DNA of 64,000 bases from a virus (lineage: Duplodnaviria; Heunggongvirae; Uroviricota; Caudoviricetes). Positions 7,958 through 64,000 of the stretch are shown in pieces (positions within the stretch are counted from its first letter, which is position 1; each line of letters begins with the position of its first letter). Below the pieces are notes generated by a model. The model was not told the DNA's origin. It saw only the letters and a program-made list of their open reading frames with translations, and ran no database searches. The position numbers were made by a program, and so were the translations under genes. The stretch is from the IMG/VR virus record IMGVR_UViG_3300047472_000248, positions 52,315-116,314 of that record; one strand, written 5' to 3'.

Positions 7958-7970
7958 CGTCACGGTTGGA

Positions 7971-8999: not shown

Positions 9000-9008
9000 T
9001 ATCCACAG
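9000..9008. promoter_or_regulatory. DnaA box TTATCCACA
   Basis: perfect consensus 9-mer between the iterons and an AT-rich patch (CCATTTATCAG). Confidence 0.5.
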
Positions 9009-9168: not shown

Positions 9169-9507
9169 CTAGCCCCCTGCCCTCACCCGCTCCATCTTCT
9201 CGGCGATCGCCTCGAGGATGAACCGGTGCATCGACATCGACGGCAGCGTGTGCACCAGGGCCATCAGCTCGAAGTGATCCGTCTCGGGCATCTTCAGGTT
9301 CACCTGCTTGAGCACCCGGGGATTGAGGCCATTTGCAGGCGCTGCAGGCTTCTGTCGCTGGGTGGGTGGCGGGGCTGGCACTGGCGGGGGCTGTGGGGCC
9401 GCGGCGGGCTCTTCCTGGGGCTGGTCGGCCGTCAGGTTGGTCTTCGCCTGCTCGACGAACTCTTCTGGCGTGCGCGGCGGTTTGATTCGGCGCAGCGTCC
9501 CCGTCAT
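9169..9507 (-). CDS. ParG-like ribbon-helix-helix partition / centromere-binding protein
   Basis: 112 aa; disordered Pro/Ala-rich N-terminus and C-terminal RHH-like segment; translationally coupled to parA-like gene. Confidence 0.45.
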   Translation of the reverse strand: MTGTLRRIKPPRTPEEFVEQAKTNLTADQPQEEPAAAPQPPPVPAPPPTQRQKPAAPANGLNPRVLKQVNLKMPETDHFELMALVHTLPSMSMHRFILEAIAEKMERVRAGG

Positions 9508-10163
9508 GCGGCCTCCTTCGCGGTCTCGAACATCTCTTTGTAGAGCCGGCGCATCTCGAACATCGCCTTCTCGTCGCCCTTCCCTTGCTCGGTCACCGCC
9601 AGGCCGTCGCGTGCGGCCCGCCTGAAGGCGACGCGATCGCGCAGCACGGCATCGGCCAGCTGCACGTTCGTCAGGTCGCCCACGACCTCGCGCATGTCGT
9701 CCGCATCGGTCATGGTCGCGTGGGTCGGGGCGCAGTTCACGACCACGTAGGCGCGCAACTTCTGGTTGAAGGTCTGGACGTCGCCCACCACCCGATCGAT
9801 CGCGGCCAGGCCGTGGATGTCGAACTGGCTCGGCCGCGCCGGGATGAGCATCACCTGGGCGACGAGCATGGCCTGGCGCAGCTCGATCGAATCACGGCCG
9901 CCGGCGTCGATGACCACGTCGTCGTAGCGTGGCGAGAGCTTGCGCAGCTCCTCGGTGACGCCCTTCCCTTTCAGCTGGATGCAGCTGATCTTCGGCTCGA
10001 CGCCCTCCTCCGTTCGGATCTCCGCCCATGAGGTGGCGCTCTGTTGCGTGTCGGTGTCGACCAGCAGCACGTCGCGCCCCGCAGCCGCCCGGATGGCCGC
10101 CAGGTTCGTCGCGATCGTCGTCTTGCCAGTGCCGCCCTTCTCTCCGCCAACGAGGACTATCAT
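9504..10163 (-). CDS. parA: ParA/ParF-family partition ATPase
   Basis: deviant Walker A GGEKGGTGKTT; DTD motif; 219 aa, small type-Ib ParA. Confidence 0.8.
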   Translation of the reverse strand: MIVLVGGEKGGTGKTTIATNLAAIRAAAGRDVLLVDTDTQQSATSWAEIRTEEGVEPKISCIQLKGKGVTEELRKLSPRYDDVVIDAGGRDSIELRQAMLVAQVMLIPARPSQFDIHGLAAIDRVVGDVQTFNQKLRAYVVVNCAPTHATMTDADDMREVVGDLTNVQLADAVLRDRVAFRRAARDGLAVTEQGKGDEKAMFEMRRLYKEMFETAKEAA

Positions 10164-10169
10164 GCTCTC

Positions 10170-10410
10170 TCCTATGCTAGGGTATCAAAGCAGATGCCAG
10201 TGCCCCATGGGCTAGGCGATCGCAGGCGATGCCAGCATAGGACAGCGTGGTGTAGGAGAGGATAGCACCCCCTTCCCTGCCCTCGGCTAGGGTTTGCGAT
10301 GCTAGGCTATGCCACCAGACCGATGCATAGCATATGAGAGGGGAGGGTAGGCGACCCTATGCGATGAGCCCGCATGCCACCATAGGCTAGGCTATCGCAG
10401 GCTATGCGAG
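10170..10410. repeat. centromere-like array of short CTAGG / TATGC / GCATAG repeats (candidate parC and par promoter)
   Basis: about 12 degenerate hexamer copies in alternating orientation directly upstream of parA. Confidence 0.5.
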
Positions 10411-10414
10411 GGGC

Positions 10415-10447
10415 ATAAAAAAGGCGCCCACGAGGGGCGCCACTGAG
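10415..10447 (-). terminator. intrinsic terminator downstream of the HTH regulator gene
   Basis: GGCGCCCCTCGTGGGCGCC hairpin followed by TTTTTTAT on the minus strand. Confidence 0.55.
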
Positions 10448-10467
10448 GGGAAGGGGTGGCCTGGAGC

Positions 10468-10977
10468 CTAAGCTGCCTTGCGATGCGACGTGCCCAGCGT
10501 GCGCGCCACTGCAGCATGTGCTGCCTTGCGCTGATCGCGGAGCTTTCGCAGAACAGGGATGAGCGCCTCGACAAAGGCAGGCTCCGCGGCCAGGTCGATG
10601 TCCATGTCCTGCAGCTCGTGGTTCACCAGACGCAGCAGGTTCGCATCCTTCTGCGAGACCATCCGGGTCGTCATGATTTCCTCCAAGGTCTTGTAAGTCT
10701 CGGGGGTGTATTCCTTCATGACCAGGCGAAAGAGATAGACGGGATCGCCGTCGATGGCCTTGCACAGCGCGGCAATCTTGTTGATCGGCAGCTTCATCTC
10801 GCCGGTCTCGATCATCGTCATGATGTTGCCGGTGGCATAGCCGAGCGTGGACGCGACTTCCCTGCGCGTCTTACCGCTGGCATCCATCAGTCGCGCGATG
10901 TAGTCGGAGACGGCGCCCTTGTATCCCCGCTCGCGCTCCTTGACTACCTCCGTCGATCCCTTCTTTTGCGTGGCCAT
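10468..10977 (-). CDS. HTH (XRE-family) transcriptional regulator, candidate repressor
   Basis: helix-turn-helix REVASTLGYATGNIMTMIETGEMKLPINKIAAL; divergent from early operon. Confidence 0.6.
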   Translation of the reverse strand: MATQKKGSTEVVKERERGYKGAVSDYIARLMDASGKTRREVASTLGYATGNIMTMIETGEMKLPINKIAALCKAIDGDPVYLFRLVMKEYTPETYKTLEEIMTTRMVSQKDANLLRLVNHELQDMDIDLAAEPAFVEALIPVLRKLRDQRKAAHAAVARTLGTSHRKAA

Positions 10978-11268: not shown

Positions 11269-11451
11269 ATGGCCGGCCAACTAAACGGAAAAGAAGTCAC
11301 GAGTGACGAGTTTGTTCGAGTCATGCAGTCAGCTGAGTCTGTAACACGCCTCGATATGGGGCTCGGCGACATCTACATCCTGAGGTTCAAAGCTGGCGAT
11401 CGTGCCGCGATCGCGATGGACGGGCGCTACGCCCTGGTCGACATCGGCTGA
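11269..11451 (+). CDS. first gene of rightward operon (60 aa)
   Basis: ATG 12 nt after RBS TAGGAGA; promoter-proximal position. Confidence 0.35.
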   Translation: MAGQLNGKEVTSDEFVRVMQSAESVTRLDMGLGDIYILRFKAGDRAAIAMDGRYALVDIG

Positions 11452-11536
11452 CGCATCGGCTGCTGTTGCAGCCCCGCCCCGAATCCGAGGGGCAATTTTT
11501 AGAGTTCGTTCATTGCAGCGAACGAAGGGGAGCGCG

Positions 11537-13762
11537 ATGCGCAAGGACATCATGGTGGTTCGGGAGTCGATCGGAAAGATCGTCACGCTCCTGACGGATC
11601 GCAAGATCAACGTAACACAGCGTGGCACCGACGCATACGTGCGCTACGCTCCGGACGGTCAGGTTCTCCAGCTCAACGTCCCCTACCTGCCCGATGATGC
11701 CGACGATACGCTGATCGCGGCGATCCAGGGCTTTCTGGATCATGAAGTCGGTCACGTTCTGCACACCGACCACAAGGTCGTGGTGTCGGCCGCGAAGCAG
11801 GGCACGCGCATCAAGAAGATGGCCAACCTCGTCGAGGACGTCTACGTCGAGAAGATGATGGCCAAGACATTCCCGGGCAGCGAGTCGAACCTCGAGCGCC
11901 TGCGTGAAGTCTTCCTGAACCGGATGATCAAGCCCGAGCTCGACAAGGCGATCGCCGCGGGCGACACGACCTTCGCGTCTGGCTCGCTGATGATCGTGCA
12001 GTTCCGGGCGTGGGGCGGGCAGCGCGCGTGCGCTGACTTTCTGAAGGCGAAGGCTGCCGTCTACGACCCGCTGCTGGCAGACCTGCGCGACGCCCTGGGC
12101 GCCGACATCGCCGAGCAGCTCGGGCAGACCCGCAGCAGCGCCGACTGCCTGCACCTGGCCAAGCGGGTGATCGCCCGGATCGAACAGTGGGAGGAAGACC
12201 GCAAGAAGAAGGAGATGGAGCGCCGCCGCAAAGAGCGCGAGGCAGCCAAGAAGGAAGAGGAGGAAAAAGAGCCACCGCCGCCGCCCAAGGACGACCCCCG
12301 CGAGGAGTCTGAAGAGCAGCCGCCCAAGGAAGGGGAGGGCGAAGAAGAGCCTCCAGAGGAGGCCGAACCGGGCGAGGGTGGCGAGGGCGAGCCGGCACCC
12401 GAAGAGGGCAGCTCGGAAGAGGAGGGCGAGCCCGCCCCGGGCGACGACGAGGGTGAAGAGCCTGCCCCCAGCGAAGAGCCCACGGAAGAGGGCGCACCGC
12501 CACCCGAACTGAAGCCGTCGGGTGAGGAGTCCGCCGGCGAACCCGAGCCCGGGGAAGAGCCTGAAGAAGATGAGGGTGCCGGCATGGGCGCCAGCGAACC
12601 CGAGCCGACCCCTGAACCCGGGGAGAGCAGTGCGGGCGCTGAGGAGGAGGGTGAGGAGGGTGAGGAGGGCACAGCACCGTCTGAAGAGCCGGCATCGGCG
12701 GCCGCCGAAGAGGGTGGGGAGGAAGAAGAGGAGGAAGACCTCGGTCCCGAGCCGGAACCGTCGTCGCTGCTGCCGGCGCTGGACGAAGCCGAGGGGACCG
12801 ACTTCAGCAAGGATCTGGCCAAGATTCTGGGCGAGGATTCCCGAGAGACTATGGTCAAGTCGGACTACTGCATCTTCTCCACCGAGTGGGACAAGGTCGA
12901 GATCTTCGAGCCGCCCGGCGCGGTGCCCGACCGCCAGGTCACCGACCTGGTGGAGACCACGACGTCGATGGTGGGCGTCATGGCCAAGAACCTCGAGCGC
13001 GCGATCGCCGCGATGACCAAGGTCGCCTGGAACCCCGGGCTGCGCCGCGGCCGCATCAACCCGTCCGCCCTGGCCAAGTCGGGCGTGGGCGACGATCGTC
13101 TCTTCCGCAAGCGCTACGAGCACCGGGCGAAGGACACGGCGGCGACCCTGCTGATCGACTGCTCCGGGTCGATGCAGGGCCCGAAGATGCGCACCGCTGC
13201 GCTGGCGGGCTACGCGCTGTCGATGGTGCTGGAGCGCCTTCGTGTGCCGCACGAGGTGGTGGGGTTCACGACGAGGATCTCCACCGAGATGGAGGCGGCA
13301 CTCGACCGTGAGCGTCGCAGTCACGGACGCTCCGTGAACTATTCGCGGGACGAGTCGCTCTACATGCCGATCTTCAAGGAATTCCACGAGCGGGTGACGG
13401 CAGTCGTCACGCGCCGTATGGCTTACCTGGTCCCTGGCTACCCCGAGGGCGTGATGCGGAACAACGTCGACGGCGAGAGCGTGCAGATCGCTGCGCATCG
13501 CCTGCGCCAGCAGCGTGCCAGTCGGCACGTCCTGATGGTGCTGTCGGATGGGCGGCCGGCCTGCTCGCCAGGCTATGGGCTGAACGAGCACCTGCAGAAG
13601 GTCGTTCGGAACGTCGAAGCGAGCGGCATCGATGTCATCGGCATCGGCATCGGCACCTCGGTCGTCGAGCAGTTCTATCCACGCAACGTCGTGGTCGACG
13701 ACATCAAGGAACTGCCGCAGGTCGTCATCAGCCAACTCGGAAAGTTGCTCTTGGCTGTGTGA
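11537..13762 (+). CDS. CobT-like von Willebrand factor A protein with long acidic E/P/G-rich linker
   Basis: C-terminal MIDAS LLIDCSGSM; ~250-aa low-complexity poly-E/P region; RBS AAGGGGAG; 11402 is the ORF-track start, 11537 is the preferred ATG. Confidence 0.6.
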   Translation: MRKDIMVVRESIGKIVTLLTDRKINVTQRGTDAYVRYAPDGQVLQLNVPYLPDDADDTLIAAIQGFLDHEVGHVLHTDHKVVVSAAKQGTRIKKMANLVEDVYVEKMMAKTFPGSESNLERLREVFLNRMIKPELDKAIAAGDTTFASGSLMIVQFRAWGGQRACADFLKAKAAVYDPLLADLRDALGADIAEQLGQTRSSADCLHLAKRVIARIEQWEEDRKKKEMERRRKEREAAKKEEEEKEPPPPPKDDPREESEEQPPKEGEGEEEPPEEAEPGEGGEGEPAPEEGSSEEEGEPAPGDDEGEEPAPSEEPTEEGAPPPELKPSGEESAGEPEPGEEPEEDEGAGMGASEPEPTPEPGESSAGAEEEGEEGEEGTAPSEEPASAAAEEGGEEEEEEDLGPEPEPSSLLPALDEAEGTDFSKDLAKILGEDSRETMVKSDYCIFSTEWDKVEIFEPPGAVPDRQVTDLVETTTSMVGVMAKNLERAIAAMTKVAWNPGLRRGRINPSALAKSGVGDDRLFRKRYEHRAKDTAATLLIDCSGSMQGPKMRTAALAGYALSMVLERLRVPHEVVGFTTRISTEMEAALDRERRSHGRSVNYSRDESLYMPIFKEFHERVTAVVTRRMAYLVPGYPEGVMRNNVDGESVQIAAHRLRQQRASRHVLMVLSDGRPACSPGYGLNEHLQKVVRNVEASGIDVIGIGIGTSVVEQFYPRNVVVDDIKELPQVVISQLGKLLLAV

Positions 13763-13877: not shown

Positions 13878-15086
13878 ATGAGCGAAGTCGCCACCGTCGA
13901 AGAACTCGACACCCGGATCAGCTGCGAAATCTGTGGTGCCAAGTGCCACGGCATTCAGACGCACCTGAAGGATGATCACGCCGACTGGACATTGGCACGC
14001 TACGAGAAGGAGTTCCCCGGCAAGCCGCTGCTCTCCGAGCTGGCCAAGATGAAACTCGCCGAGCACCAGGCCGCAAAGAAGGCTGCCGCAAACCCGGCGT
14101 CGTCATCAGTCAGCACTGACTCGAAGCAGCGCGCTGAGACGAAGTTCTTCCATGAAGTCTTCGGGCTGGGCATGGTGCCGGCGGCGCTCAGCACCCCGTC
14201 GAAGGACGGGAAAAAGAAGGCACGGCCGATCCCGATCACGACGCTGATCAACACGCCGGAATCGCAGCCGATGGTGCCGGCGATCGACCCGAACTACGTC
14301 TTCAACCTCGACGTCCTCAAGAGCGTGATGCTTGCCGCCGAGATGGGCGTCGCGGCCTATCTCTGGGGCCACGCCGGCACGGGGAAGACCTCCCTGTTCG
14401 AGCAGCTGTTCGCGCGGACCAACCGCCCGATGATCCGGGTGCAGCACACCGCCAACATGGAAGAGTCGCACATCGTCGGCCAGTGGGTGCTGCGTGAGGG
14501 CGAGACGGTGTTCGAACTCGGCCCGCTGCCGCTGGCCATGATCAATGGGTGGGTCTACCTCGCCGACGAATACGACTTCGGCCGCCCCGAGGTGCTGTCG
14601 GTCTACCAGGCCGTGCTCGAGGGCAAGGCGCTGGTGATCAAGGAAGCTGACGCGAAGAACCGCGTCATCAAGCCGCACCCGAACTTCCGCTTCGTCGCGA
14701 CGGGCAACACCAACGGCACGGGCGACGAGTCGGGCCTGTATTCGGGCACGAACATCCAGAACGCCGCCAACTACGAGCGCTTCGCCATCGTCGAGCGCAT
14801 GCCCTACATGGAGCCCGAGCTGGAGGCACGCCTCGTGTCGCAGCAGGCCGCCATCGCGATTCTCGACGCGCGCAAGCTGGTCGACTACGCCGGGCGCATC
14901 CGCACCGAGTTCGACAACGGCAAGGTGACCTCGCCGATCTCCCCGCGCTCGCTGATCTACGCCGGGAAGATCGGGATGATCCGCGCCAACTACCGCATCG
15001 GCCTCGAGAAGGCCTACATCAACCGCCTGTCCTCGGTCGACCGAGAGACGGCATTGCAATTCGCCCAGCGCGTTTTCGGAGCTTGA
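13878..15086 (+). CDS. AAA+ ATPase, CobS/MoxR-like
   Basis: Walker A GHAGTGKTS, Walker B-like VYLADEYD; N-terminal Cys/His cluster CEICGAKCHGIQTH. Confidence 0.65.
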   Translation: MSEVATVEELDTRISCEICGAKCHGIQTHLKDDHADWTLARYEKEFPGKPLLSELAKMKLAEHQAAKKAAANPASSSVSTDSKQRAETKFFHEVFGLGMVPAALSTPSKDGKKKARPIPITTLINTPESQPMVPAIDPNYVFNLDVLKSVMLAAEMGVAAYLWGHAGTGKTSLFEQLFARTNRPMIRVQHTANMEESHIVGQWVLREGETVFELGPLPLAMINGWVYLADEYDFGRPEVLSVYQAVLEGKALVIKEADAKNRVIKPHPNFRFVATGNTNGTGDESGLYSGTNIQNAANYERFAIVERMPYMEPELEARLVSQQAAIAILDARKLVDYAGRIRTEFDNGKVTSPISPRSLIYAGKIGMIRANYRIGLEKAYINRLSSVDRETALQFAQRVFGA

Positions 15087-15742
15087 GCATGACGGCAGTA
15101 ACCAAAGAGCAGTTCGCCAACGACGGCAGCTATGAGTCGGTCGAGCGCATGTTGCGCCAGCTGGCGGGCAAGTGCTTCAAGCGCGTGTCGGGCATGGGTC
15201 TTTCGATGGACTTCGATGACTGCATGGGCATCATGAACGTCGGCTATGCCGAGTCCCTGCGCACCTGGGACCCCGAGAAGTCCAAGTTCGCGACGTGGTG
15301 CCAGTTCGTCGGGCTGCAGCACTTCAACCGCGCGATCGCGAAGGAAGAGCGCGAACGTGCCGAGATGGGCATGGTGTCCTTCACCGACATCATGGGCTCG
15401 AGCGAGGAGGGCAGCGACGACTTCACCGAGTTCTTCGCGGCCGCCGAGTCCGATGCAGAAGAGGCGCCCGACGAGCGACGGGCCCGGTTCGAGCTGAACA
15501 TGGAGCGTCTGCGCACGCTGTCGCCGGCGGCCAAGCGCCTGGTCAAGGCGCTGATCGAGTCGGAGATGGCCGTCAGCCGCGAGATCGTCACGCTGCACAG
15601 CCTGACCCAAGCCCTGGGCATGGACCCCAAGACCGTCTCCGGCGTCTGCCGTGAGCTGAAGCACGTCTACAGCCTGACGAACCTGCGTGTGGTCGCGCCG
15701 GCCAGGCCGAAGGGCGAAGCGCAGGAGCAGACCGCGGCGTGA
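15083..15742 (+). CDS. sigma-70-family-like RNA polymerase sigma factor
   Basis: region-2-like FATWCQFVGLQHFNRAIAKEER (cf. FxTYAxWWIRQAIxRAI); C-terminal HTH-like region 4. Confidence 0.45.
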   Translation: MSMTAVTKEQFANDGSYESVERMLRQLAGKCFKRVSGMGLSMDFDDCMGIMNVGYAESLRTWDPEKSKFATWCQFVGLQHFNRAIAKEERERAEMGMVSFTDIMGSSEEGSDDFTEFFAAAESDAEEAPDERRARFELNMERLRTLSPAAKRLVKALIESEMAVSREIVTLHSLTQALGMDPKTVSGVCRELKHVYSLTNLRVVAPARPKGEAQEQTAA

Positions 15743-16329: not shown

Positions 16330-16575
16330 ATGTCAGAAGTCACGATCACCATGCCCAAGGAACTCACGGGCGAAATGCTGCGCGCGGTGCGTGAGCATCC
16401 ACTCACGAAGGTCGAAGACCGCGACGAGATGAACCTGCGCATCGGCTGGCTGATCTGCGCCTGGGACGTGCTCGCGGAGCACCGCCGGCCGCCACCCGTG
16501 CCGTATCGACCGCCACAGCCGACCCCACTGGGGGCGATTCCCAACGATCCGAGAGTGAAGTGGTCCTGGAAATGA
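16330..16575 (+). CDS. hypothetical protein
   Basis: 81 aa; RBS AGAGACTGCCCCT; ATGA overlap with dnaE start. Confidence 0.45.
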   Translation: MSEVTITMPKELTGEMLRAVREHPLTKVEDRDEMNLRIGWLICAWDVLAEHRRPPPVPYRPPQPTPLGAIPNDPRVKWSWK

Positions 16576-19500
16576 ACCCCCTTCAGATCGCCCCATCGAT
16601 TCGCTCCGACTTCTCGATCGGCGAATCCTCTGCGCAGATCCCGAAGCTGGTCGACCGCGCGAAGGAGCTGGGCTACAAGGCGCTCGCGCTCGTGGACACC
16701 ATGAGCGTCTCGTCGATGCCCAAGTTCGCCAGCGCGTGCAAGAAGGCCGAGATCAAGCCCATCGTTGGCTGCACCGTCCGGGTCGTCAACGATCCCGCCG
16801 AGCGGGTGAAGGACCGCGAGAATGGCGGCTACCGCCTGAAGGTCTACGTCAAGACCGAGCGGGGCCTGCAGTCGCTCTACCGGTTGCTGACGACGGCGCT
16901 CCAGCCCGACCACTTCTACTATCACAGCCGCTGCTCGCTCGACGAGGTCCTGCAGCTCGAGGACGTGATCGTCACCACGGGCGACATGCACAACCTCTGG
17001 CACCGGCAGGACGCGGCCGCGATCGACAGCCACCTGATTCACCGCTTTGGGAACGACTACGGGGTGGAGCTGGTCGCGCTGAAGACGCCACTCTTCGACC
17101 GCCTGAACCGCACCGCCTGGGAAGTGGCACAGTCTCAAAGCCGCAACATCATCGTCACCCGGCCGGTCTTCTACCTCACGCCGGAGGATGCCGACAGCAC
17201 CGACGTGCTGCGGGCGATCTCGTCCAACACGTCGGTCGACAGCATCTTCCTCCCGCAGCCCTACGTGCGCGACATGGCGCTGCTCGACCCCAAGGACTAC
17301 CTGAAGCACCTGCAGGCGCTCGACGAGACGCTGGGCGCCAAGGTGGCAAGCCGCGGGCTGCACCACGTCAAGGGCATCGCCGACAACTGCACCTACGAAT
17401 TCAAGAAGCTCCCACCCTCCATGCCCAAGATGGCAGAGGACGAGTTCGTCACTCTCTGCGGCATCGTGCGCGACGGCTGGACCGAACGCTTCTCGAAGAC
17501 CGTCTGGGGCCACGCGCCGGCGCCCGCCGAGCTGCAGGTCTACAAGGACCGCCTCAGCTTCGAGCTGAGCGTCCTGAAGAAGATGGGCTTCAGCGGCTAC
17601 TTCCTGCTGGTGCACGACATCGTCCAGTGGTCGAAGGACAACGGCATCCGCGTGGGCCCCGGGCGGGGCTCCGCCGGCGGCAGTCTGGTCGCCTACCTCA
17701 TGGGGATCACTGACCTCGACCCCGTGCGCTTCGACCTCCTGTTCGAGCGCTTCATCAATCCCGACCGGATCGACTTGCCCGACGCCGACCTCGACTTCAT
17801 GTCCGGGCGCCGGCACGAGGTGATCGAATACATCACCAACAAGTGGGGCAAGGATCACGTCGCGGGCATCGTCAACTTCTCCACCCTGGGCGCTGCGTCT
17901 GCGCTGCGCGACAGCGCGCGCCTGCACGGCCTGAAGCCCTACGAGTATTCGTGCTCGAAGCAGATGGAGAAGGAGCACGGGGTCGCGCTCAGCCTCGAGA
18001 AGTCCGCCGAGCTGGTGCCCGACATCGAGAAATTCAAGCTGGACCGCCCGGTGATATGGAACCACGCGGTGCGCATCGAGGGCGCCAACCGCAACCTCTC
18101 GCAGCACGCCGCGGGCGTGGTCGTCGCCGGCGAGCCGATCGTCAACCGGGCGGTGGTCTCCACCCAGCCGGGGCACGCGGTCATCCAGTGGGACAAGAGC
18201 CAGGTCGAAGAGTTCGGCCTGATCAAGATGGACATCTTGGGCCTGACGACGCTCGACGTGATCGATGCGATCCTCACCTACGTGAAGGAGCGCCATCACA
18301 AGACGATCGACACGCTGCGGCTGCCGCTCGACGACGACAAGACCCTGAAGGCATTCGCCAAGGGCGACACCGTGGGGGTGTTCCAGTTCACGGGGTCGGG
18401 CATGCGCAAGCTGCTCAAAGAGATGGCGATGGGCGGGCCGCTGACGTTCGACGATGCGTGCGCTGCCACCGCGCTGTTCCGGCCGGGCCCGCTCGACGCC
18501 GGCCTGTGTGACCGCTACGTTCAGGTGAAGCAGGGAGCCGCGACGCCCTACTACGAGCACCCCGCGCTCGAGGAGTGCCTCAGCGACACCTTCGGCGTGA
18601 TCGTCTACCAGGAGCAGGTCATGAAGATCTGCCGGGTGCTCTGCGGGTTTACCCCGGGTGAAGCCGACGGTGTGCGCAAGGCCATCGGGAAGAAAGACCC
18701 GGTGAAGATGGCCGAATACGGGGAGCAGTTCGTCGCCGGCGCCGTCAAGGCAGGCATGGACAGCTTCCGCGCCGAGGCGCTTTGGGAGCAGATTCTGGGC
18801 TTCGCGGGCTACGCCTTCAACAAGTCGCACAGCTACGCCTACACGCTGCTCAGCTACACCACCATGTGGCTGAAGGTGAACTACCCGCTGGAGTTCTTCG
18901 CGGGCTCGCTGTCGGTGGTCGACGACTCGGACGCCCAGGCGATCCTGATCGCCGACGCGCAGAGCAGGGGCATCCGTGTGCTGCCGCCCGACGTGAACTA
19001 CAGCAGCGCGCGCATCGAGATCAAGGGCGAGGACGAACTCTACGCGCCGCTGCAGGCCGTCAAGGGCATCAGCAGCAACGTCGCCGCGTCGATCCTGAAG
19101 CTGCGCGAGGCCACCTCGGAGCACGTCCACGTCGGGCCGCCCGTGGTCAGAACGAAATCCCCGCTGACGATGACGGACTTCGATCCGGCGCGCCAGAAGG
19201 AGATTTTGGGGCGGGTCAAGGTCAACGCCGCGCACCGCGCTGCGCTCGATAAGGTGGGCGGGTTCTTCTCGATCACCGGTGGCGTGCCCCCGACGCACCC
19301 TGACCGCTTGCGCGACCGACTGGCACTCATGCCCGGGTTCACCGTCGAGACGGTGAAGGCCGATCGGAAGCTCACCGTCGAGCACCTGGCCAAGATCAAG
19401 ATCACCCGCCTGGTGGAAGAGGCGCGGACCTGCGAGGGCTGCTCGTTCAAGGGCAAGACGCACCCCGTGGTCCGCATGGGCGACGCGCCGAAGTTCATGC

Positions 19501-19961
19501 TGGTCTTCGACACCCCGAGCTACCAGGACGACCGGGCGGGCAAACTGCTCGCAGAGGGGAGCGACGAGCGCCCGGGCAACTACGAGGTCGTGCGCGCCGC
19601 GCTGAAGGGCATTGGGCTTCGGGTCGGCGACGGCTACTACACCGCGCTGGTGAAGGCCGCGAAGAACAAGGGCCAGAAGGAGCTGACGAACGAGCAGATC
19701 AACGGGTGCAGCAAGTTCCTGATGGAGGAGATTGCGATCCTGAAGCCGCCCGTCATCGTCGCCATGGGGAGCAATGCGGTGCGCTTCTTCGCGCCGGGTA
19801 TCAAGGGCTCGCCGGCTGACCTCGCCGGCAAGGCCATCTATCGCAGCGATCTGGACGCAACCGTCATCTTCGGCATCAACCCGGCGTCGCTGTTCTTCGA
19901 CCCGAGCAAAGAGGCGCTGATCGTTGCGGCATTCGACAAACTGGGCGAGCTTTTGAGCTGA
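16572..19961 (+). CDS. dnaE: DNA polymerase III alpha (DnaE-type) with C-terminal family-4-UDG-like domain
   Basis: PHP domain; [17 protein letters not shown]...[26 protein letters not shown]...DLDF polymerase core; C-terminal CEGCSF...FDTPS...[21 protein letters not shown]...GINPAS parallels UDG family 4 with GEAPG replaced. Confidence 0.85.
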   Translation: [1129 protein letters not shown]

Positions 19962-51208: not shown

Positions 51209-51261
51209 CGCCCGCAAGGGCCTTCCTGCCTAGGCCCGCCCACAGCCTCCCGCTAGGCTGC

Positions 51262-51282
51262 CCCGAGCCCCTCGGGGCTACC
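51262..51282 (+). other. perfect GC hairpin CCCCGAG-CCC-CTCGGGG in a 330-bp non-coding region
   Basis: 7-bp stem; no U-tract. Confidence 0.4.
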
Positions 51283-51408
51283 TACCCCTTGCCCTGATCG
51301 TTCCGACGCAAGGCGGGCCCATCTGGTGGGTCCCAGGGCTAGGCGCAAGCCCGCTCAAACCCCCGATTTGCGTGAAGTAATGCCCGTCAGGCTGCGACGA
51401 TCGCTTCC

Positions 51409-59451: not shown

Positions 59452-60000
59452 ATGCAGACCTTCTCCGACTTCGTCACTGCCTACAAGAAGCACGTCCACG
59501 GGTGGGATGACGCGATGTGCGATTGGGCCAATGTCCCGAGTGCCGAGAACAAGAGCGTCCACCTGACGAACTTCCAGCTCAACGCGATCGAGACGACCAT
59601 CCGTCAGCACGACCTTTGCGACTTCGGTGAGGGGCACCTTTCCGAGGTCTACCCGATCGTCCAGTCCGCCTTCGCAGCCCACCCGGGCGCTTCGCTCGAC
59701 TTCGACCTTGAGTCCAGCTATTCGCTAGCCTCACCGTGGTGCTATGAGTGCCACAGCGCCGACGAATACATGGTGCGCATCGCGCGCTGCCTGGTTGAAA
59801 CGGAAGACGGGTGCGTGGGCGATGCCGACTACAACGACGAGCAGCTCCAGCGCACGCGCACGATTCTCGGCGCCCTGGTCGCTGTCGGGGTGCCGATCAA
59901 CTACGTGAACAGTCAGGTTCCTGCGATCGCCCATTGCGAGGATGGGGACAACCCTGTGCAGCAAGCCTTCTTGCGCAAGCTGTTGGGCCTGACGCCCTGA
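59452..60000 (+). CDS. hypothetical protein
   Basis: 182 aa; last gene before a strong terminator. Confidence 0.5.
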   Translation: MQTFSDFVTAYKKHVHGWDDAMCDWANVPSAENKSVHLTNFQLNAIETTIRQHDLCDFGEGHLSEVYPIVQSAFAAHPGASLDFDLESSYSLASPWCYECHSADEYMVRIARCLVETEDGCVGDADYNDEQLQRTRTILGALVAVGVPINYVNSQVPAIAHCEDGDNPVQQAFLRKLLGLTP

Positions 60001-60004
60001 ATTC

Positions 60005-60052
60005 CGAAGGGCGGGAAGGGCGAATTCGGCCCTCCCGCTTTGCTTTTAGCGC
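60005..60052 (+). terminator. intrinsic terminator ending the long rightward operon
   Basis: GGGCGGGAAGGGCGAATTCGGCCCTCCCGC stem-loop followed by TTTGCTTTT, then AT-rich spacer. Confidence 0.65.
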
Positions 60053-60213
60053 CCATTCGCCTAGGCCCTTGTAAGTCCTTGATTTATAAGGCTTTTTAGA
60101 CACATTGGCTCGCACAATTGCAGTCACAGGCGCAATCTACCCGAGAAGCACCGAATTCACGCACGACCAGGCGCAGAAATCTGCACCAGCCGATCGGAAT
60201 CCGCACGCAAAGC

Positions 60214-60705
60214 CTACGACAAGGCTGCCCCGATCAACGCAAAGCACCTACCCCTACGACCGAAACCTCCGAGGGGCAGGCTGCCCGATTCAAAGCCCCG
60301 ACCCACCAGGCCCAAAACGTAGAAGAACAACCAGAAGACGAACACCAGCAGCAAGCGCGCCGAACCGTAGAAGAAGACCAGCAGCGCACCACGGCAAAGG
60401 CGAACCACCAGCACCGAAACACCCCGGGTCGGCAGAGCGCCAAACACGTAGACGAACAACCACCCGGCAGTCACCACCGACAACGCCGACACCCACACGG
60501 GCACAGACCAAGGCTCACCCTCCTCTGGGATAGAAGGAGAGGGTAGACACAGGTAGGTAGAGAAGGACCAGGACAGGGGGCGCAGCCCAGGCTCACACCA
60601 GGCGAACGCAGTGAGCCGTTGGCGTGCTTCCTTGTCGTCGTCCCAGTCCTCCAAGTCCTTACCGCTGGCGTCCACCTGGCAGGAGCCTCGGCTGCACTGG
60701 GCCAA
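60214..60705 (-). CDS. possible multi-TM membrane protein (TTG start), reverse-oriented
   Basis: + strand A/C-rich and G-poor, consistent with a minus-strand L/V/F/G-rich gene; four hydrophobic segments; weak start. Confidence 0.25.
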   Translation of the reverse strand: MAQCSRGSCQVDASGKDLEDWDDDKEARQRLTAFAWCEPGLRPLSWSFSTYLCLPSPSIPEEGEPWSVPVWVSALSVVTAGWLFVYVFGALPTRGVSVLVVRLCRGALLVFFYGSARLLLVFVFWLFFYVLGLVGRGFESGSLPLGGFGRRGRCFALIGAALS

Positions 60706-60961
60706 ACACCCTCATTGCCATAGGTAAAACACCCACGCGCAGGCTCAGGCAGCGTGGTCCTAGGCCCCTCGGAAACCGTGCCAAATTGCCCGATGGGACC
60801 CGTATCAGGGCCTTCGGCGTAGCTGTCGTTCCTTACAGCAAAACTACAATGTGACTTATACGTAAAGCGAATTCCCTGTAAGGGTAGTCCGTTCGGCTTA
60901 CACGTAGGCACCCTCGGCGAGTTCCCACGGGGGTCAGAAACGTCTTATAGAAGGCATTCTC

Positions 60962-61369
60962 TTGAAGAAACCGATCCCCCACTTCCGCCCGAAGCTCGCC
61001 TGGTCGAACACCTCCGCTGCGGCACTGCCTGAAGCCAACAGTGCCCCCACCCAGGACGACCAGGCTGAGGACCGCCGACACGGCGAGCGCCGGCAGCTGA
61101 CGACCCATCCGATCGCTGCACACCGGGAAGAAGCGCTCGCCCCCGTCGGCGTCCCCGCAGTGCACAGAGAGCGCAGCCGATTCAAGGTGCAGATTCGCAC
61201 CTGGGACGGCGAGCTCCAGACGATCATGGTCTCGTCTTCTCGGCAGTTCAGCCACCCGGACCGACTGCGCGCAGCCTTCAAGGCAGCGTTTGACATCCTC
61301 GAGCCGGGGTTCACGCTGGTGACCCTTGAGATGTTCGCGTCGCAGACCATCGAGGTCGACGTCGCCTAA
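60962..61369 (+). CDS. hypothetical protein (TTG start)
   Basis: 135 aa; non-repetitive C-terminal half. Confidence 0.3.
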   Translation: MKKPIPHFRPKLAWSNTSAAALPEANSAPTQDDQAEDRRHGERRQLTTHPIAAHREEALAPVGVPAVHRERSRFKVQIRTWDGELQTIMVSSSRQFSHPDRLRAAFKAAFDILEPGFTLVTLEMFASQTIEVDVA

Positions 61370-61401
61370 CCCCCGATAGTCCTGAAGGAGCAGCACACCC
61401 C

Positions 61402-61671
61402 ATGCCACACCGACTTGAGGCCATTCCCTCCCTGCTTGAAGGCACCGAGGTTCGGATCATCTACACCGACGCCGTGGGGCAGCCCCATGAAGGCATCTTC
61501 TCAACCACGCAGGTCTTCCCCGACCGTGGGCTGGACCTGGCCATGAAGATGCGCAGCGTGCTCGAGGACCTGATGCAGGACACCGGTGCCACCTTGTTGT
61601 CGGTGGGGCTGGTGTCGTCCGAGTTCTCGAGCGTGCCGGTCGAGTCGCACTTCGTGGGCCTCAACGGCTAG
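61402..61671 (+). CDS. hypothetical protein
   Basis: 89 aa; good RBS GAAGGAG. Confidence 0.4.
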   Translation: MPHRLEAIPSLLEGTEVRIIYTDAVGQPHEGIFSTTQVFPDRGLDLAMKMRSVLEDLMQDTGATLLSVGLVSSEFSSVPVESHFVGLNG

Positions 61672-61820
61672 GCACCAGGCTTCGAAGCTCCCGGCACGGC
61701 ATACGGCTCGGGGCCTCGATAGGCCCTTCAGGCTCAGGCCCACCCACCCCGGCTTGGCTCATCCCGACACATAGCCTAGGCTAGGGTAGTCCGGGCTGCC
61801 CGCTGCCTTCCCCTGGTTGC

Positions 61821-61840
61821 GACAGTCCCACCTGTCGAAC
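61821..61840 (+). promoter_or_regulatory. class-2 motif variant GACAGTCCCACCTGTCGAAC
   Basis: palindromic CGACAG...CTGTCG arms; 29 nt before ATG 61868. Confidence 0.4.
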
Positions 61841-61867
61841 ACAACCACCCACCAGGGGAAGACAACC

Positions 61868-62026
61868 ATGCCGTCCCGATCGCTCATCCAGCTGCTCAAG
61901 CGTGCCATCAACCTGAAGAAGTCGCTCGGGGTGCGCTGCGCCGCGGGCTACCTCCGAAACCGGGAGGTGCAGTTCGATGTCGCCTACTTCGCGATGTTCG
62001 GCCGTCTGCCGCGCGAGCTCGCATGA
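61868..62026 (+). CDS. hypothetical small protein (52 aa)
   Basis: RBS GGGGAAGACAACC. Confidence 0.35.
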   Translation: MPSRSLIQLLKRAINLKKSLGVRCAAGYLRNREVQFDVAYFAMFGRLPRELA

Positions 62027-62247
62027 CGCCGATCTACTGGGAGCCTTGGGAGCACTCCTACGCCATTGAGGAGCGCAACCTCATGCTCGGCATCGACCAC
62101 AACGGGATGCCGCTCTACGCCGACGGCCTGACGATCGCCGAGCTGATGCACGAGGCCGAGTCCCAGCGCAGCGCCCGGAAGAAGGTCGAGACGGCCCAGA
62201 AGCGCCGCTGCAGGGCTGGCCAAGAGAAGGGCACGCGACGCGCGTAG
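62023..62247 (+). CDS. hypothetical protein
   Basis: 74 aa; ATGA overlap. Confidence 0.4.
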   Translation: MTPIYWEPWEHSYAIEERNLMLGIDHNGMPLYADGLTIAELMHEAESQRSARKKVETAQKRRCRAGQEKGTRRA

Positions 62248-62551
62248 ACGCCTGCAGCAACGCCCACACAGCGCCCGGGGTTCGGCATCGCCGCCCTGGG
62301 CGTTTTCATGTTCGGCTGACTGCCTGTAAGCAGGGCCTAGGACGCGGCGCTGTCCTGGTGCCTTGATATTCGGCGAGGGTCCTTTAAGGCGGCGTTTGGA
62401 CCAGGCGGCCCGCCCTGGGCTCCGCCCCCGCGCTGCCAAATGCGAACGGGCCTCAACAACCGCGGTCCTTCTCACGCCCCGCGTGCCAAGTCAAGCGAAT
62501 TCGAATACCCGACCGCCTTATTCAAGATACGGGTTTGCCCTAGGTGCGATC

Positions 62552-62578
62552 AGTCAGAACTGACTTACATTATCTATA
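62552..62578 (+). promoter_or_regulatory. AGTCAGAACTGACT palindrome + AT-rich -10-like TACATTATCTATAC
   Basis: in a 380-bp non-coding spacer before the low-GC3 gene. Confidence 0.5.
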
Positions 62579-62631
62579 CCGCATCAATTGATGACGGTGT
62601 TTATGAAACCTAACCCAAAGGGGATTTTGAA

Positions 62632-63255
62632 ATGAACGCTTCGACCACCACCTACGCCCGCGGTATCGCCCTCTTGAACGCGCATCCCGCCCGTGCAAGC
62701 GCTGATATTAGCGCGGTTCTGAACCCGCGCAGTGCATTCGGTTTCGTCGAGAAGACTGCGCAAGCATTCGACCGTTTCGGTATCGATGCAGACATCGTCT
62801 TTTCTCTCCCGCAGAAGCAAGTCAAGCGCGCGGTTCAGATGGTCAATGCAGTCGTGTCGGGCACGTATGACAAAATCGACGCGACTACCGCGTGCGGGCT
62901 GTATGCCCTGCGTCTCTCCCCCGATAACGCCCTCGAATACGATGCGCTTCACCTGCTCATCTCTGGGGTTGTGCGCAAAGAAGATTCGCTGATCGATCAG
63001 AAGGGGGTTTCGCGCTCGATTCTGCGTCGATTGTTCGCCCGGGTAGGGGCTAACACCGTCTCGACGCAGAAGTCGCGCAGCTTCGGGAATAACGGGTTCT
63101 GTGACGCCCTGGGCATGACGGGTGCAACGCACGGTAAGGTGAACCGCATGGTCGACCTGAACCCCGCGCACCCCCTTACTGTCGCATTCTTCGAAATGGT
63201 CGACAAAGCAAATCCCGCGCAAATCGACGCGATCGGTGGGGGCAAGGGAGAGTAA
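62632..63255 (+). CDS. hypothetical protein, atypical codon usage
   Basis: 207 aa; many T/A-ending codons unlike the rest of the window; RBS AAAGGGGAT. Confidence 0.5.
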   Translation: MNASTTTYARGIALLNAHPARASADISAVLNPRSAFGFVEKTAQAFDRFGIDADIVFSLPQKQVKRAVQMVNAVVSGTYDKIDATTACGLYALRLSPDNALEYDALHLLISGVVRKEDSLIDQKGVSRSILRRLFARVGANTVSTQKSRSFGNNGFCDALGMTGATHGKVNRMVDLNPAHPLTVAFFEMVDKANPAQIDAIGGGKGE

Positions 63256-63260
63256 GGGCA

Positions 63261-63278
63261 GAGGGGCGTTAACGCGCC
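63261..63278 (+). other. GC hairpin GGGGCG-TTAACG-CGCCCC after the gene
   Basis: contains palindrome GCGTTAACGC; weak U-tract. Confidence 0.3.
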
Positions 63279-63288
63279 CCTTCTGCTA

Positions 63289-63302
63289 AGTCACCCCTGA
63301 CT
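63289..63302. promoter_or_regulatory. AGTCACCCCTGACT palindrome
   Basis: CTAAGTCACCCCTGACTTAC before 63321 gene. Confidence 0.45.
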
Positions 63303-63320
63303 TACTACACCGAGACCACC

Positions 63321-63512
63321 ATGACGACACTACAGCAAGCCCCACGCACGAAGCCCCGTCTGCGCAAGCCCGATGCACGCATGTGGGCACGCATCGACGG
63401 TGACGAAGACGATGCACAGCAGCAGATCGAGCGCGCACGCATGGGGTATGACGACGAGCGCGACCCATGCGATACCCTCGACTTCATGCTTTCGCTAGGG
63501 CTTCCCCTGTGA
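63321..63512 (+). CDS. hypothetical acidic protein
   Basis: 63 aa. Confidence 0.35.
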   Translation: MTTLQQAPRTKPRLRKPDARMWARIDGDEDDAQQQIERARMGYDDERDPCDTLDFMLSLGLPL

Positions 63513-63730
63513 AGCGCGCTCTGATCTATCGCTTCGAGTGCGAGACGCACGGGGACACTGTCACCATGCACAACACCGTGCAGCGCGACGGGTGCGACGG
63601 TGCCCCGTTCATCGTCACGCATGCGTCGCTTGAGGGTGAGGTCTCTTACCGTGCGACGCTCGATGACTACGATGCAGCAAAGGGCGCGTTCATCTCGCGC
63701 GTCATGCACGAGATGTCAAGCGCGGGGTAA
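63467..63730 (+). CDS. hypothetical protein (start probably GTG ~63509)
   Basis: CETHGD...CDG Cys/His pattern. Confidence 0.35.
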   Translation: MRYPRLHAFARASPVKRALIYRFECETHGDTVTMHNTVQRDGCDGAPFIVTHASLEGEVSYRATLDDYDAAKGAFISRVMHEMSSAG

Positions 63731-64000
63731 CCCTCTAGACCTTGACCCCCTCACGGGGGTTTCAAGCTCGTGAATCCATTGCCGCCTAATTTTTCGCCAC
63801 AGGACCCACCCCGCCTTATACCTAGCCGTCCTGCCGACACGCCACAGGTCCGCCCAGCCCCGCGAGAGCACCCGGAGCGCAAGGCAACGGGCCCACGTGC
63901 ACCGCTGGAATCCTGGCGGCCGCGCACCAGACCCTCTGCCTTATACAGACCCCTAGTTTCGTGCCTCGCCTACCGGCGCGGGGGGGGGGGGGGGGGCCCC

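Follow-up and report, generated by a model that had tools for sequence, protein, structure and literature searches.

Anatomy and probable regulatory role of the 4 kb behind the long operon of a roughly 116-kb phage, with a winged-helix gene of an undescribed family

Organization of the region behind the long operon

The window analysed here, a 64,000-nucleotide stretch of phage DNA, carries a long + strand operon. The terminator of this operon and the 4 kb that follow it contain these features:

60008-60047, + strand: intrinsic terminator of the long operon, a GC-rich hairpin (60008-60041) and then TTTGCTTTT
60067-60097, - strand: conserved element of about 31 bp, read on this strand as AAAAAGCCTTATAAATCAAGGACTTACAAGG
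60181-60619, + strand: T-depleted, A/C-rich tract, probably non-coding
60214-60705, - strand: 163-aa 'multi-TM' ORF, probably a compositional by-product
60620-60961, + strand: non-coding leader with many short motifs that the rest of the window seldom shows
60962-61369, + strand: small gene A, 135 aa, TTG start behind GAAGG, lineage-specific
61402-61671, + strand: small gene B, 89 aa, weakly conserved, coding margin 0.34
61804-61864, + strand: hairpin with a 14-bp stem, its 3' arm over the ribosome-binding site of gene C
61868-62026, + strand: small gene C, 52 aa, conserved in the L002/L014 lineage, coding margin 0.38
62023-62247, + strand: small gene D, 74 aa, overlapping ATGA start, lineage-specific
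62270-62308, + strand: intrinsic terminator of the C-D mini-operon, then UUUU
62552-62571, no strand assigned: operator-like palindrome AGTCAGAACTGACT (62552-62565) and abutting TACATT -10-like box, likely promoter of the 207-aa gene
62632-63255, + strand: 207-aa gene with low GC3, its modelled winged-helix product belonging to an undescribed family
63257-63302, + strand: GC-rich hairpin (63257-63287), then a second palindrome copy AGTCACCCCTGACT (63289-63302)
63321-63512, + strand: small gene F, 63 aa, lineage-specific, coding margin 0.28, GC3 0.688
63467-63730, + strand: small gene G, 87 aa (ATG 63467) or 73 aa (GTG 63509), lineage-specific
63731-63979, + strand: conserved non-coding region at the convergent junction, from the L002/L014 alignment

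The strong terminator that the first-pass annotation placed at the operon end is real, with a hairpin folding at -24.4 kcal/mol (z -2.35). A second, AT-rich hairpin (60066-60091, -12.9 kcal/mol, then CTTTTT) lies at the 31-bp element; this hairpin is not conserved in the relatives. The element itself is 87-93% identical in the lineages L002, L006 and L011, where no other nearby sequence aligns, and its orientation is flipped in the latter two. It includes the sole match in the window to the IHF consensus WATCAANNNNTTR (60072-60084; one in 64 kb versus 0.21 expected). An A-tract precedes the core by 8 nt, as in lambda attP H'. The element, which is probably bound by IHF, is closest to IHF sites of this kind and matches their consensus (PMC8942017, PMC10380432) exactly. 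In contrast to these sites, about 25-31 nt are conserved here, far beyond the known need of IHF, the element is inverted between lineages, and its 20-nt core recurs letter for letter in IMG/VR, in more than 120 viral contigs that are unrelated.

Coding margins lie at 0.25-0.50 for every small + strand ORF, and the genes at 60962-62247 show a normal GC3 of 0.82-0.93. For genes A (coding margin 0.31, GC3 0.82), D (0.50 and 0.93), F and G, no homologues were found in the relatives. For gene B, phmmer picks up one ORF each from L006 and L011, at E 4.5e-5 and 1.1e-4, and gene C gives phmmer E values of 1e-12 and 7e-13, with 45% identity by tblastn. Lineage specificity is just as marked in the last genes of the long operon before them. 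Compared with the rest of the window, the leader 60620-60961 is enriched in the k-mers AGGCTCA, GTCCTAGGCCC, AGGGTAG, CCTGTAAG, CTTATAC/G and GCGAATTC, and related words are present in L002 and L011. The hairpin ahead of gene C (-28.1 kcal/mol, z -4.0) lies inside a leader with CATAGCCTAGGCTAGGGTAG, and the C-D terminator hairpin (62270-62304) folds at -26.6 kcal/mol (z -2.9).

The thymine-depleted tract and its minus-strand reading frame

The A/C-rich, G-poor composition described after the operon proved to be extreme. Among all 400-nt windows of the 64 kb, those that begin at 60051-60201 are poorest in G (0.233) and richest in A+C, at 0.698 about 6 sd above the window mean (0.524, sd 0.029). 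The sharper property is the depletion of T, which falls to 2-3% over 60300-60500 (minimum 2.5%) and stays at or below 7% in 200-nt windows throughout 60181-60619. A T-depleted tract occupies the syntenic place in four lineages, including L002, L006 and L011, without sequence similarity; the terminator and the IHF-type site are likewise recurrent in four lineages. The period-3 signal of the tract is weak, and no RNA structure beyond that of shuffles was found on either strand. The tract is probably non-coding.

The 163-aa minus-strand frame noted earlier as a possible multi-TM ORF exists, has three hydrophobic segments on the Kyte-Doolittle scale and, alone among the minus ORFs between 11 and 60 kb, reaches a positive coding margin (+0.19). 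Since stop codons all contain T and reverse-complemented stops all contain A, most frames of the tract stay open; frames of at least 100 aa are open in 74% of shuffled tracts. Furthermore, any minus-strand translation looks hydrophobic because an A-free strand encodes only F, L, S, C, W, P, R, V, A and G. Scarcity of thymine removes stops on both strands, and the ORF has probably arisen as a side effect of it.

If real, the ORF would encode a lineage-specific small membrane protein, for instance a superinfection-exclusion or holin-like one, and the T depletion of the + strand would merely mirror hydrophobic coding on the other strand. We consider this doubtful, though it deserves to be weighed. 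Three or more hydrophobic segments arise in 4% of composition-matched shuffles, GC3 is 0.76 with T enriched at codon position 2, synonymous choices are skewed (GAC 6:0, TAC 4:0, TTC 10:3), and two gene callers, JGI and Logan, both called the ORF. On the other hand, its codon log-likelihood of -4.12 lies at the level of shadow ORFs (-4.0 to -4.25) and not of real genes (-3.5 to -3.9). No homologue of its product except itself was found among 5.8 billion sequences, and neither a ribosome-binding site nor a promoter is evident. The L002 and L006 tracts carry no coherent minus ORF, yet their composition is conserved; the minus ORFs there have negative coding margins and Cys-rich translations, one with 10% Cys. 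This multi-TM candidate is therefore short of both homologues and a coding signal like that of the phage genes.

A little less probable still is a joint function, in DNA or RNA, of the strand-asymmetric tract and its neighbouring IHF-type site. They could act as an origin of lytic replication or as a rut-like insulator that loads Rho, which would back up the terminator and shield the downstream regulatory genes from read-through. The tract lies directly after the terminators and its composition is kept in four lineages though the sequence is not. Its + strand RNA would be C-rich and G-poor (C/G 1.65 in the window and 1.38 in L006) and would fold only weakly, at -0.23 kcal/mol per nt versus -0.40 on the other strand. 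In addition, the IHF-type core is often found in IMG/VR among iterons, DnaA boxes or tRNA 3' ends, with at least three copies of an 8-mer within 200 nt at 40% of core sites versus 11% of background positions. However, C roughly equals G in L002, and rut sites are not known to be U-depleted. The site has no flanking iterons in the window, the TrfA iterons lying instead at 8.4-9.2 kb, and a T-poor tract accompanies the IHF-type element in 3 of 123 sites, indicating no general linkage.

The winged-helix gene and the phage-wide palindrome

The spacer 62248-62631, described earlier as 380 bp of non-coding DNA with a palindrome and a promoter, spans 384 nt without coding signal and holds the C-D terminator, AGTCAGAACTGACT and the TACATT box. 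The latter two likely constitute the promoter of the 207-aa gene. The 14-bp palindrome AGTCAGnnCTGACT has 19 copies in the window versus 0.17 expected, 17 of them away from the 207-aa gene; most are intergenic and overlap or abut TATAAT boxes, and the order of palindrome and then -10 box is repeated at other promoters of the window. In each of the seven close lineages, a copy precedes the homologous gene by 24-80 nt, while more distant homologues have other upstream palindromes (CACTGCAG..CTGCAGTG, GGTCA-N3-TGACC and GTCTTATATAAGAC). Behind the gene, the hairpin 63257-63287 (-23.7 kcal/mol, z -5.2) followed by a palindrome is an arrangement also seen after the homologue in L002, L014, L027 and L152.

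Dispersed-operator immunity is exemplified by the C1 operators of P1 and the 'stoperators' of mycobacteriophage L5, which are asymmetric sites. The motif studied here resembles such systems of phage-plasmids and temperate phages in being one short word, placed about once per 3.4 kb, almost always intergenic and overlapping or abutting sigma-70-type promoters; it differs from the P1 and L5 sites in being a perfect 6+2+6 palindrome. The phage also has plasmid-type maintenance genes: a TrfA-like initiator with iterons, ParA within a type Ib-like par cassette (9.2-10.4 kb) with its own small partner gene, and an XRE repressor. Relatives of RHEph10 and Nickie have been treated among phage-plasmids (PMC7969092). 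In RHEph10, three palindrome copies were counted in 50 kb (record 40-90 kb), and no member of the 207-aa family turned up when record 40-115 kb was searched by HMM.

Against a reference set of 53 genes (GC3 0.860 +/- 0.045, minimum 0.735), the 207-aa gene has a GC3 of 0.702 (z -3.5), the lowest among all sizeable genes, a synonymous-codon score of z -3.1, and 20% T-ending codons versus 7%. The preference for A/T-ending codons attributed to the whole stretch 62632-63730 holds for two of the three genes named, the 207-aa gene and gene F, since 63512-63730 (gene G, coding margin 0.39) has a GC3 of 0.795 and normal codon usage. In all eight relative lineages with flanking DNA sufficient to judge, the 207-aa gene occupies one locus, after a non-coding leader of 0.4-1 kb and before a convergent DEAD-helicase/ParB block, at 41-59% identity. 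As GC3 also tends to be low in the homologues, it is a property of the gene family and not a mark of recent import.

A confident model (pLDDT 94) gives the product a winged-helix DNA-binding fold. Searches of Pfam, PHROG, NCBIfam and PDB, and of cultured phages, plasmids and genome representatives, gave no match to the family, which is a new, undescribed one. Its nearest likeness is to winged-helix regulators of the MarR/ArsR type, such as Sco3205 (3zpl), RosR (6ez1), SmtB and STIV F93 (2co5). In contrast to these, it lacks sequence-profile matches to database entries, has a unique N-terminal helical domain of about 80 residues, and carries an insertion, NTVSTQKSRSxGxNGFC, which is its most conserved part. 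Fold, conservation and context indicate that the product is most likely a phage transcription regulator. The protein is predicted to bind DNA; as binder of the palindrome, the XRE-HTH protein (10468-10977) is an equally good candidate. A DNA-handling role in the plasmid or lytic cycle, as a centromere-binding or origin-binding protein or a packaging adaptor, is distinctly unlikely, given that the best structural matches of this DNA-binding fold are transcription regulators and that the par cassette already has its partner gene.

Reading of the region and its convergent end

We favour, with moderate confidence, the view that the 4 kb past the long operon constitute a conserved regulatory tail of the replication/nucleotide-metabolism block on the + strand, composed of terminators, a predicted site for bending by an IHF-type host factor, a spacer almost devoid of thymine and a winged-helix gene with transcription of its own. 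In this arrangement, transcription of the long operon would end at the strong terminator, next to the exact and conserved IHF-consensus site, where the host bending protein probably binds. The thymine-depleted stretch of about 450 nt that comes next would most likely serve as a non-coding spacer or leader and not as a membrane-protein gene. Two short operons of fast-evolving small genes (A-B and C-D) would then follow, each behind a long leader whose short motifs recur in other control regions of the phage. The 207-aa gene would form its own transcription unit, with a sigma-70-type -10 box abutted by the palindrome, a strong ribosome-binding site ahead and a hairpin at its end. The regulator it most likely encodes could thereby stand under operator control common to about 17 other promoters, its low GC3 being a family trait.

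The first-pass description of the region is confirmed, and its interpretation is partly supported. The region is indeed distinct in composition, in its autonomous 207-aa unit with atypical codon usage and in its mostly lineage-specific small ORFs, but the reading as an accessory island is not supported. Morons are autonomous promoter-gene-terminator units in prophages, and the 207-aa gene resembles them in its predicted own promoter, flanking hairpins and deviant composition. Nevertheless, horizontally acquired moron or defence/anti-defence cargo, expressed autonomously for host benefit or against host defences, is very improbable and largely refuted by synteny: despite the lowest GC3 among sizeable genes, the small ORFs A, D, F and G without homologues, and a family unmatched in cultured phages, plasmids or genome representatives, the 207-aa gene is not patchy, its promoter bears the phage's own operator motif (predicted to regulate it), its fold is a DNA-binding one and not that of a host-fitness or defence factor, and no protein of the region received a defence or other assignment from PADLOC, Pfam, PHROGs or NCBIfam, the one PADLOC match being weak (E 0.028 across 37 residues). 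The module thus appears as an ordinary regulatory unit, though a poorly charted one.

At the convergent junction, 63731-63979 aligns with L002 and L014 at a mean column identity of 64%, with invariant blocks. It contains a hairpin (63738-63769, -16.1 kcal/mol, z -4.2), CCTTATAC at 63813 and 63938, and GAATCCTGGCGGCC at 63908-63921. All four CTTATAS sites of the window fall inside the region studied.

The segment downstream of the operon terminator

The long + strand operon closes with a hairpin at 60008-60041 (-24.4 kcal/mol) followed by UUUGCUUUU; together (60008-60047) they form a Rho-independent terminator, as the first-pass annotation had proposed. The same annotation took the segment from there to 63977 for an accessory island carrying moron or defence/anti-defence cargo. 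The elements of this segment are as follows.

60067-60097: IHF-type element
60181-60619: thymine-depleted tract
60214-60705, minus strand: candidate ORF of 163 aa
60962-61369, + strand: small gene A
61402-61671, + strand: small gene B
61868-62026, + strand: small gene C, 52 aa
62023-62247, + strand: small gene D
62248-62631: non-coding spacer of 384 nt
62632-63255, + strand: gene of a 207-aa protein, a winged-helix DNA-binding protein by predicted structure
63321-63512, + strand: small gene F
63467-63730, + strand: small gene G

As a description the annotation is accurate; the cargo interpretation is not supported. Homologues of the 207-aa protein occupy the same locus in every lineage examined, with 41-59% identity, and the patchy presence that marks a moron is not seen among the relatives compared. 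Their contigs have a common layout, in which small genes are followed by a non-coding leader of 0.4-1 kb, the homologue and sometimes one small gene and, farther on, by a convergent minus-strand block with a DEAD/ResIII helicase and ParB-domain genes. In a phmmer map of seven close lineages, the 207-aa gene is the sole gene common to all. Searches with defence and anti-defence protein models gave no significant match (PADLOC, eight proteins, best E 0.028 over 37 residues), and Pfam, PHROGs and NCBIfam offered nothing for a defence assignment.

The preference for A/T-ending codons reported for this area was recovered in 62632-63255 (GC3 0.702) and 63321-63512 (0.688) but not in 63512-63730 (0.795), and the genes at 60962-62247 are not deviant in codon usage. 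For the 207-aa gene, GC3 lies at z -3.5 and under the minimum of 53 reference genes, whose GC3 is 0.860 +/- 0.045, with a synonymous-codon score of z -3.1 and a codon log-likelihood of -3.995. Since GC3 of the homologues is also lowish within their own neighbourhoods (0.757 versus 0.818, rank 6 of 30, in the relative L002; 0.737 versus 0.807, rank 3 of 26, in the relative L006), the deviation is a trait of the family.

The 384-nt spacer does contain the terminator, palindrome and -10-like box that had been described, and the 207-aa gene is predicted to possess its own promoter and terminator, with a palindrome and a TACATT box upstream and hairpins at 62270-62304 and 63257-63287. A scan for the sigma-70 consensus gave no promoter above threshold between 59 and 64 kb, so promoters were called by likeness to TATAAT sites of the window itself. 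The best reading of the segment is a conserved regulatory tail with several promoters, which includes a winged-helix regulator gene predicted to be autonomously expressed. Strong compositional oddity, a private promoter and deviant codons are not in themselves a mark of foreign cargo in phages; in this case they belong to a conserved control region.

Among the small genes, C is common to L002 and L014 and B is weakly common to L006 and L011 in the phmmer map, which returned no homologue of A, D, F or G in the relatives. Since the two final genes of the long operon upstream also have no homologue, such lineage-specific small ORFs are not peculiar to the segment. Past gene G, the DNA gives a better alignment with L002 and L014 than any small protein. 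Upstream of gene C, a hairpin at 61804-61864 (-28.1 kcal/mol, z -4.0) has a 14-bp stem that pairs TGCCTTCCCCTGGT with ACCAGGGGAAGACA; its 3' arm covers the ribosome-binding site of this conserved gene (start 61868), whose translation it may control. In L002, a protein with a match to the Acb2/Tad1-hairpin anti-defence sponge family is encoded at 17501-17725, downstream of the ParB genes and about 7 kb past the 207-aa homologue; recognisable anti-defence cargo of the clade thus lies elsewhere, beyond the window end.

Megablast of 60000-64000 against INPHARED and an exact 39-mer search of IMG/VR gave no match. The DNA of the segment is present, identically, on a Logan contig that ends at the G-run closing the window, and the 207-aa protein is also recorded for a JGI contig of 116,314 nt. 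This run (63980-64000) consists of 17 G followed by CCCC, and the independent Logan assembly breaks at its start (~63983). No G-run is seen at the corresponding place in relatives; the run may have arisen in sequencing or assembly, or be a true homopolymer at the convergent junction.

The winged-helix family and a dispersed palindrome

The 207-aa protein has eight homologues at 52-59% identity, and 106 clusters were retrieved at E <=0.001 from a library of 1.84 billion proteins, all of about 200 aa and all metagenomic. Nothing significant was found in Pfam, PHROG, NCBIfam or PADLOC for the 207-aa protein, all ORFs and 54 family members, and sequence-profile searches of the PDB with the protein and the family gave no match. 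The same holds for tblastn of the protein against phages and plasmids, for two distant family members against phages, and for scans with back-translated patterns through IMG/VR and GTDB genomes; cultured phages, plasmids and genome representatives carry no match to the family. A metagenome scan recovered only three short Hainich groundwater contigs, and a Foldseek search of BFVD a single uncharacterised phage protein. Of the features of the MarR family (PF01047 and relatives), the winged helix-turn-helix fold is present in the predicted structure, whereas sequence-profile membership is not seen in Pfam or NCBIfam for the protein and the 54 members; palindromes adjoin the gene and may be the kind of operator that a MarR-type homodimer would bind. 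A family of at least 106 clusters of uncharacterised winged-helix proteins is thereby brought to notice.

The palindrome beside this gene, AGTCA-N4-TGACT and mostly AGTCAGnnCTGACT, occurs 19 times in the window versus 0.17 expected, and nearly all copies are intergenic.

Copies 1-10 of the palindrome start at 1115, 5259, 11239, 13790, 14108, 19969, 21013, 25869, 27394 and 32416
Copies 11-19 start at 34861, 39037, 39121, 47155, 51421, 53987, 55597, 62552 and 63289

Its position relative to TATAAT-type boxes varies: the two overlap as CTGACTATAAT at 19982, 21026 and 39050, the palindrome lies 5-6 nt downstream of the box at 5248, 34850 and 51409, and 7-9 nt upstream of it at 25892 and 27415. Since placement over core promoters is variable while the central G and C are conserved, an operator for a dimeric repressor seems a better fit than a promoter element or an RNA hairpin, and the copies look like a dispersed operator system. 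All seven close lineages have a copy 24-80 nt ahead of the homologue; the second copy near the 207-aa gene, at 63289, directly follows the terminal hairpin, and in two further loci (L027 and L152) the copy is just downstream of the homologue instead. These palindromes beside the gene and its homologues point to a 207-aa gene that belongs to the regulon of the phage itself. Upstream of more distant homologues, other palindromes are present; in L151 (~750-775) and L152 (~1010-1030), perfect GTCTTATATAAGAC palindromes are located 185-245 nt ahead of the gene.

The 207-aa family could be a master regulator acting on dispersed AGTCAGnnCTGACT operators and, if so, would decide between lysis and maintenance in a large clade of phage-plasmid-like phages of ~110 kb that is so far uncultured. 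An alternative candidate binder of the palindrome is the XRE-HTH protein of the maintenance module listed below. Palindromes are also found outside the window: IMG/VR contigs of 45-67% GC contain two to five each, with the same CTGACTATAAT junction. A link between palindrome and winged-helix protein through Rhizobium phage RHEph10 was rejected: three palindromes were counted in 50 kb (40-90 kb of its record), but an HMM search covering 40-115 kb of the record found no family member.

The window is phage DNA of 64-65% GC, the bulk of it a single long + strand block for replication and nucleotide metabolism, accompanied by a plasmid-type maintenance module.

+ strand block: genes for primase, ATP-dependent ligase, CobT/CobS-like proteins, a DnaE-UDG fusion, RecA, Mre11/Rad50-like proteins, class II RNR and RtcB
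7037-10977, minus strand: plasmid-type maintenance module
7971-8771, minus strand: TrfA-like initiator (E 6e-39)
8370-9176: iterons CGTCACCGTTGMACTA, at least 9 copies in both orientations, beside the TrfA-like gene
9169-9507: small partner gene of ParA
9504-10163, minus strand: ParA
10170-10410: repeat array of CTAGGCTAT/AGGCGATGC units
10468-10977, in the minus-strand block: XRE-HTH protein

This module suggests a phage-plasmid lifestyle. By DnaE, the closest cultured phages are RHEph10, Pseudomonas phage nickie and Stenotrophomonas ANB28 (108-122 kb), at just 40-42% identity; RHEph10 has the same overall gene order, in which a convergent ParA/DEAD-helicase block at the end leads to ParB and then terminase. 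RHEph10 and Nickie have been treated in connection with phage-plasmids (PMC7969092). Rhizobium phages P11VFA and L338C were rejected as close relatives, having RNR alone in common and using Pol I. The DnaE-type polymerase (16560-19961) carries a C-terminal domain of the uracil-DNA-glycosylase superfamily, an annotation also given in RHEph10. Directly upstream, at 15083-15742, a phage protein with sigma-70 region 2 is encoded, so a phage sigma factor could use some of the unexplained motifs as promoters.

The thymine-depleted tract and the IHF-type element

The compositional extreme noted behind the terminator was confirmed in 400-nt windows (lowest G 0.233; highest A+C 0.698, about 6 sd over the window mean). 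Thymine depletion describes it more sharply than A/C richness and G poverty, since T makes up 2-3% of 60300-60500 and, from 60181 to 60619, never exceeds 7% in 200 nt. L002, L006 and L011 have a tract with this same ceiling at the corresponding place, 2-3.4 kb ahead of the homologue, and the four tracts have no alignable sequence in common.

The minus-strand ORF had been put forward as a possible multi-TM protein. It exists, with three hydrophobic segments, but homologues or conservation were not found. Two gene callers accept it, its coding margin is positive (+0.19), T is enriched at codon position 2 and its synonymous choices end in C; moreover, when the tract is shuffled, open frames of at least 100 aa appear in 74% of cases and three or more hydrophobic segments in just 4%. 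On the other hand, a search of 5.8 billion sequences matched the ORF to itself alone, tblastn and tblastx of the relatives gave no support, and for the corresponding ORFs of L002 and L006, one of them with 10% Cys, the coding margins are negative. Its codon log-likelihood (-4.12) resembles that of shadow ORFs (-4.0 to -4.25) rather than that of real genes (-3.5 to -3.9), and the period-3 signal of the tract is weak (SNR 2.6-3.0 versus 6-16 for real genes; phase chi-square p 0.03-0.35). Since stop codons all contain T and their reverse complements A, a T-poor tract is nearly stop-free on both strands, and overlapping ORFs indeed run across it in several frames; codons free of A yield only F, L, S, C, W, P, R, V, A and G, which is why the minus-strand translation looks membrane-like. 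A real gene here is therefore rather doubtful, and the 'membrane protein' is probably artefactual, produced by thymine depletion on one strand. It exemplifies how such depletion generates long, hydrophobic-looking opposite-strand ORFs that gene callers then accept.

The tract could be a new functional non-coding element, T-free and conserved in composition only, beside the IHF-type site; candidates are a lytic origin activated by transcription and an RNA that, being U-free, escapes or titrates a host factor. A role as a Rho-loading insulator or as an origin element was also considered, and neither is well supported. A structured non-coding RNA was rejected, as folding (z -0.68 and -0.60) does not exceed shuffles on either strand; no Rfam match was obtained in the tract at E <=1 and the tRNA scan was empty. 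A disordered basic + strand protein is unlikely given GC3 of 0.52-0.60, and its coding margins are negative, with no consistent ORF in the relatives. These more novel readings, the 207-aa family as a master regulator and the T-free tract beside the IHF-type site as a functional element, are rather unlikely. The only other strongly T-depleted tract of the window, 12063-12744, lies in the CobT-like gene (11402-13762) and may encode a low-complexity polar stretch; if so, T-free DNA can also arise from coding for polar residues.

Left of the tract, the IHF core consensus WATCAANNNNTTR (PMC8942017, PMC10380432) is matched by AATCAAGGACTTA at 60072-60084 on the minus strand, the sole match in 64 kb versus 0.21 expected. 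L002, L006 and L011 retain the core, with 87-93% identity across 60067-60097, and an A/T tract precedes it by about 8 nt in all four lineages (AAAAAG-CCTTATA-AATCAA). Relative to the window and L002 (7395-7431), the element is inverted in L006 (6510-6540) and L011 (1070-1100); despite the inversion, the flanks keep their orientation, with a (CCT)AGGCTC word on the left and the T-poor tract on the right. The hairpin that the window copy can form is unstable in the relatives. Sequence and not hairpin is therefore conserved, as expected for a protein site, and from its sequence the element is predicted to be a candidate host IHF site. This instability and the inversion in two lineages also led us to reject the 60066-60091 hairpin as a conserved terminator.

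A 20-nt core of the element, CCTTATAAATCAASRACTTA, recurs verbatim in more than 120 IMG/VR contigs (loci L031-L150) of 28-64% GC with unrelated flanks. In IMG/VR, 40% of core sites have at least three copies of an 8-mer within 200 nt, versus 11% of random positions, and a number of sites lie next to DnaA boxes or the 3' ends of tRNAs. The core often lies between iteron-like repeats, sometimes as tandem or inverted pairs, and its conservation far exceeds what the IHF consensus requires. A general link between the element and a T-poor tract was rejected (3 of 123 sites), and literature searches with the motif strings, the 20-nt core included, returned nothing relevant.

Further words of the leader

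The word CTTATAS has all four of its window copies in the segment versus 1.05 expected, all on the + strand.

60855, + strand: CTTATAC/G site
60944, + strand: CTTATAC/G site
63815, + strand: CTTATAC/G site
63940, + strand: CTTATAC/G site

These sites resemble half-sites of GTCTTATATAAGAC and are another candidate operator family. Together with the 14-bp palindrome, the IHF-type 20-mer and the winged-helix family, such motifs could open up the regulatory logic of poorly studied large phage-plasmid-like viruses.

Other leader words are rare elsewhere in the window, namely AGGCTCA (four of five + strand copies), CCTAGG (five of six), GCGAATTC (three of three) and AGGGTAG (three of five). CTAGGC, TAGGCTA and AGGGTAG form clusters in three stretches of non-coding DNA, at 10212-10387 (the array near ParA), 51228-51339 and 60059-62335 (the leaders of the segment), the second falling within the intergenic region at 51.2-51.5 kb that carries CTAGGC/TAGGCTA words. 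They may constitute a shared binding motif, and the clusters in common connect the segment with control regions elsewhere in the phage. At 61770, CATAGCCTAGGCTAGGGTAG resembles the units of the repeat array at 10170-10410.
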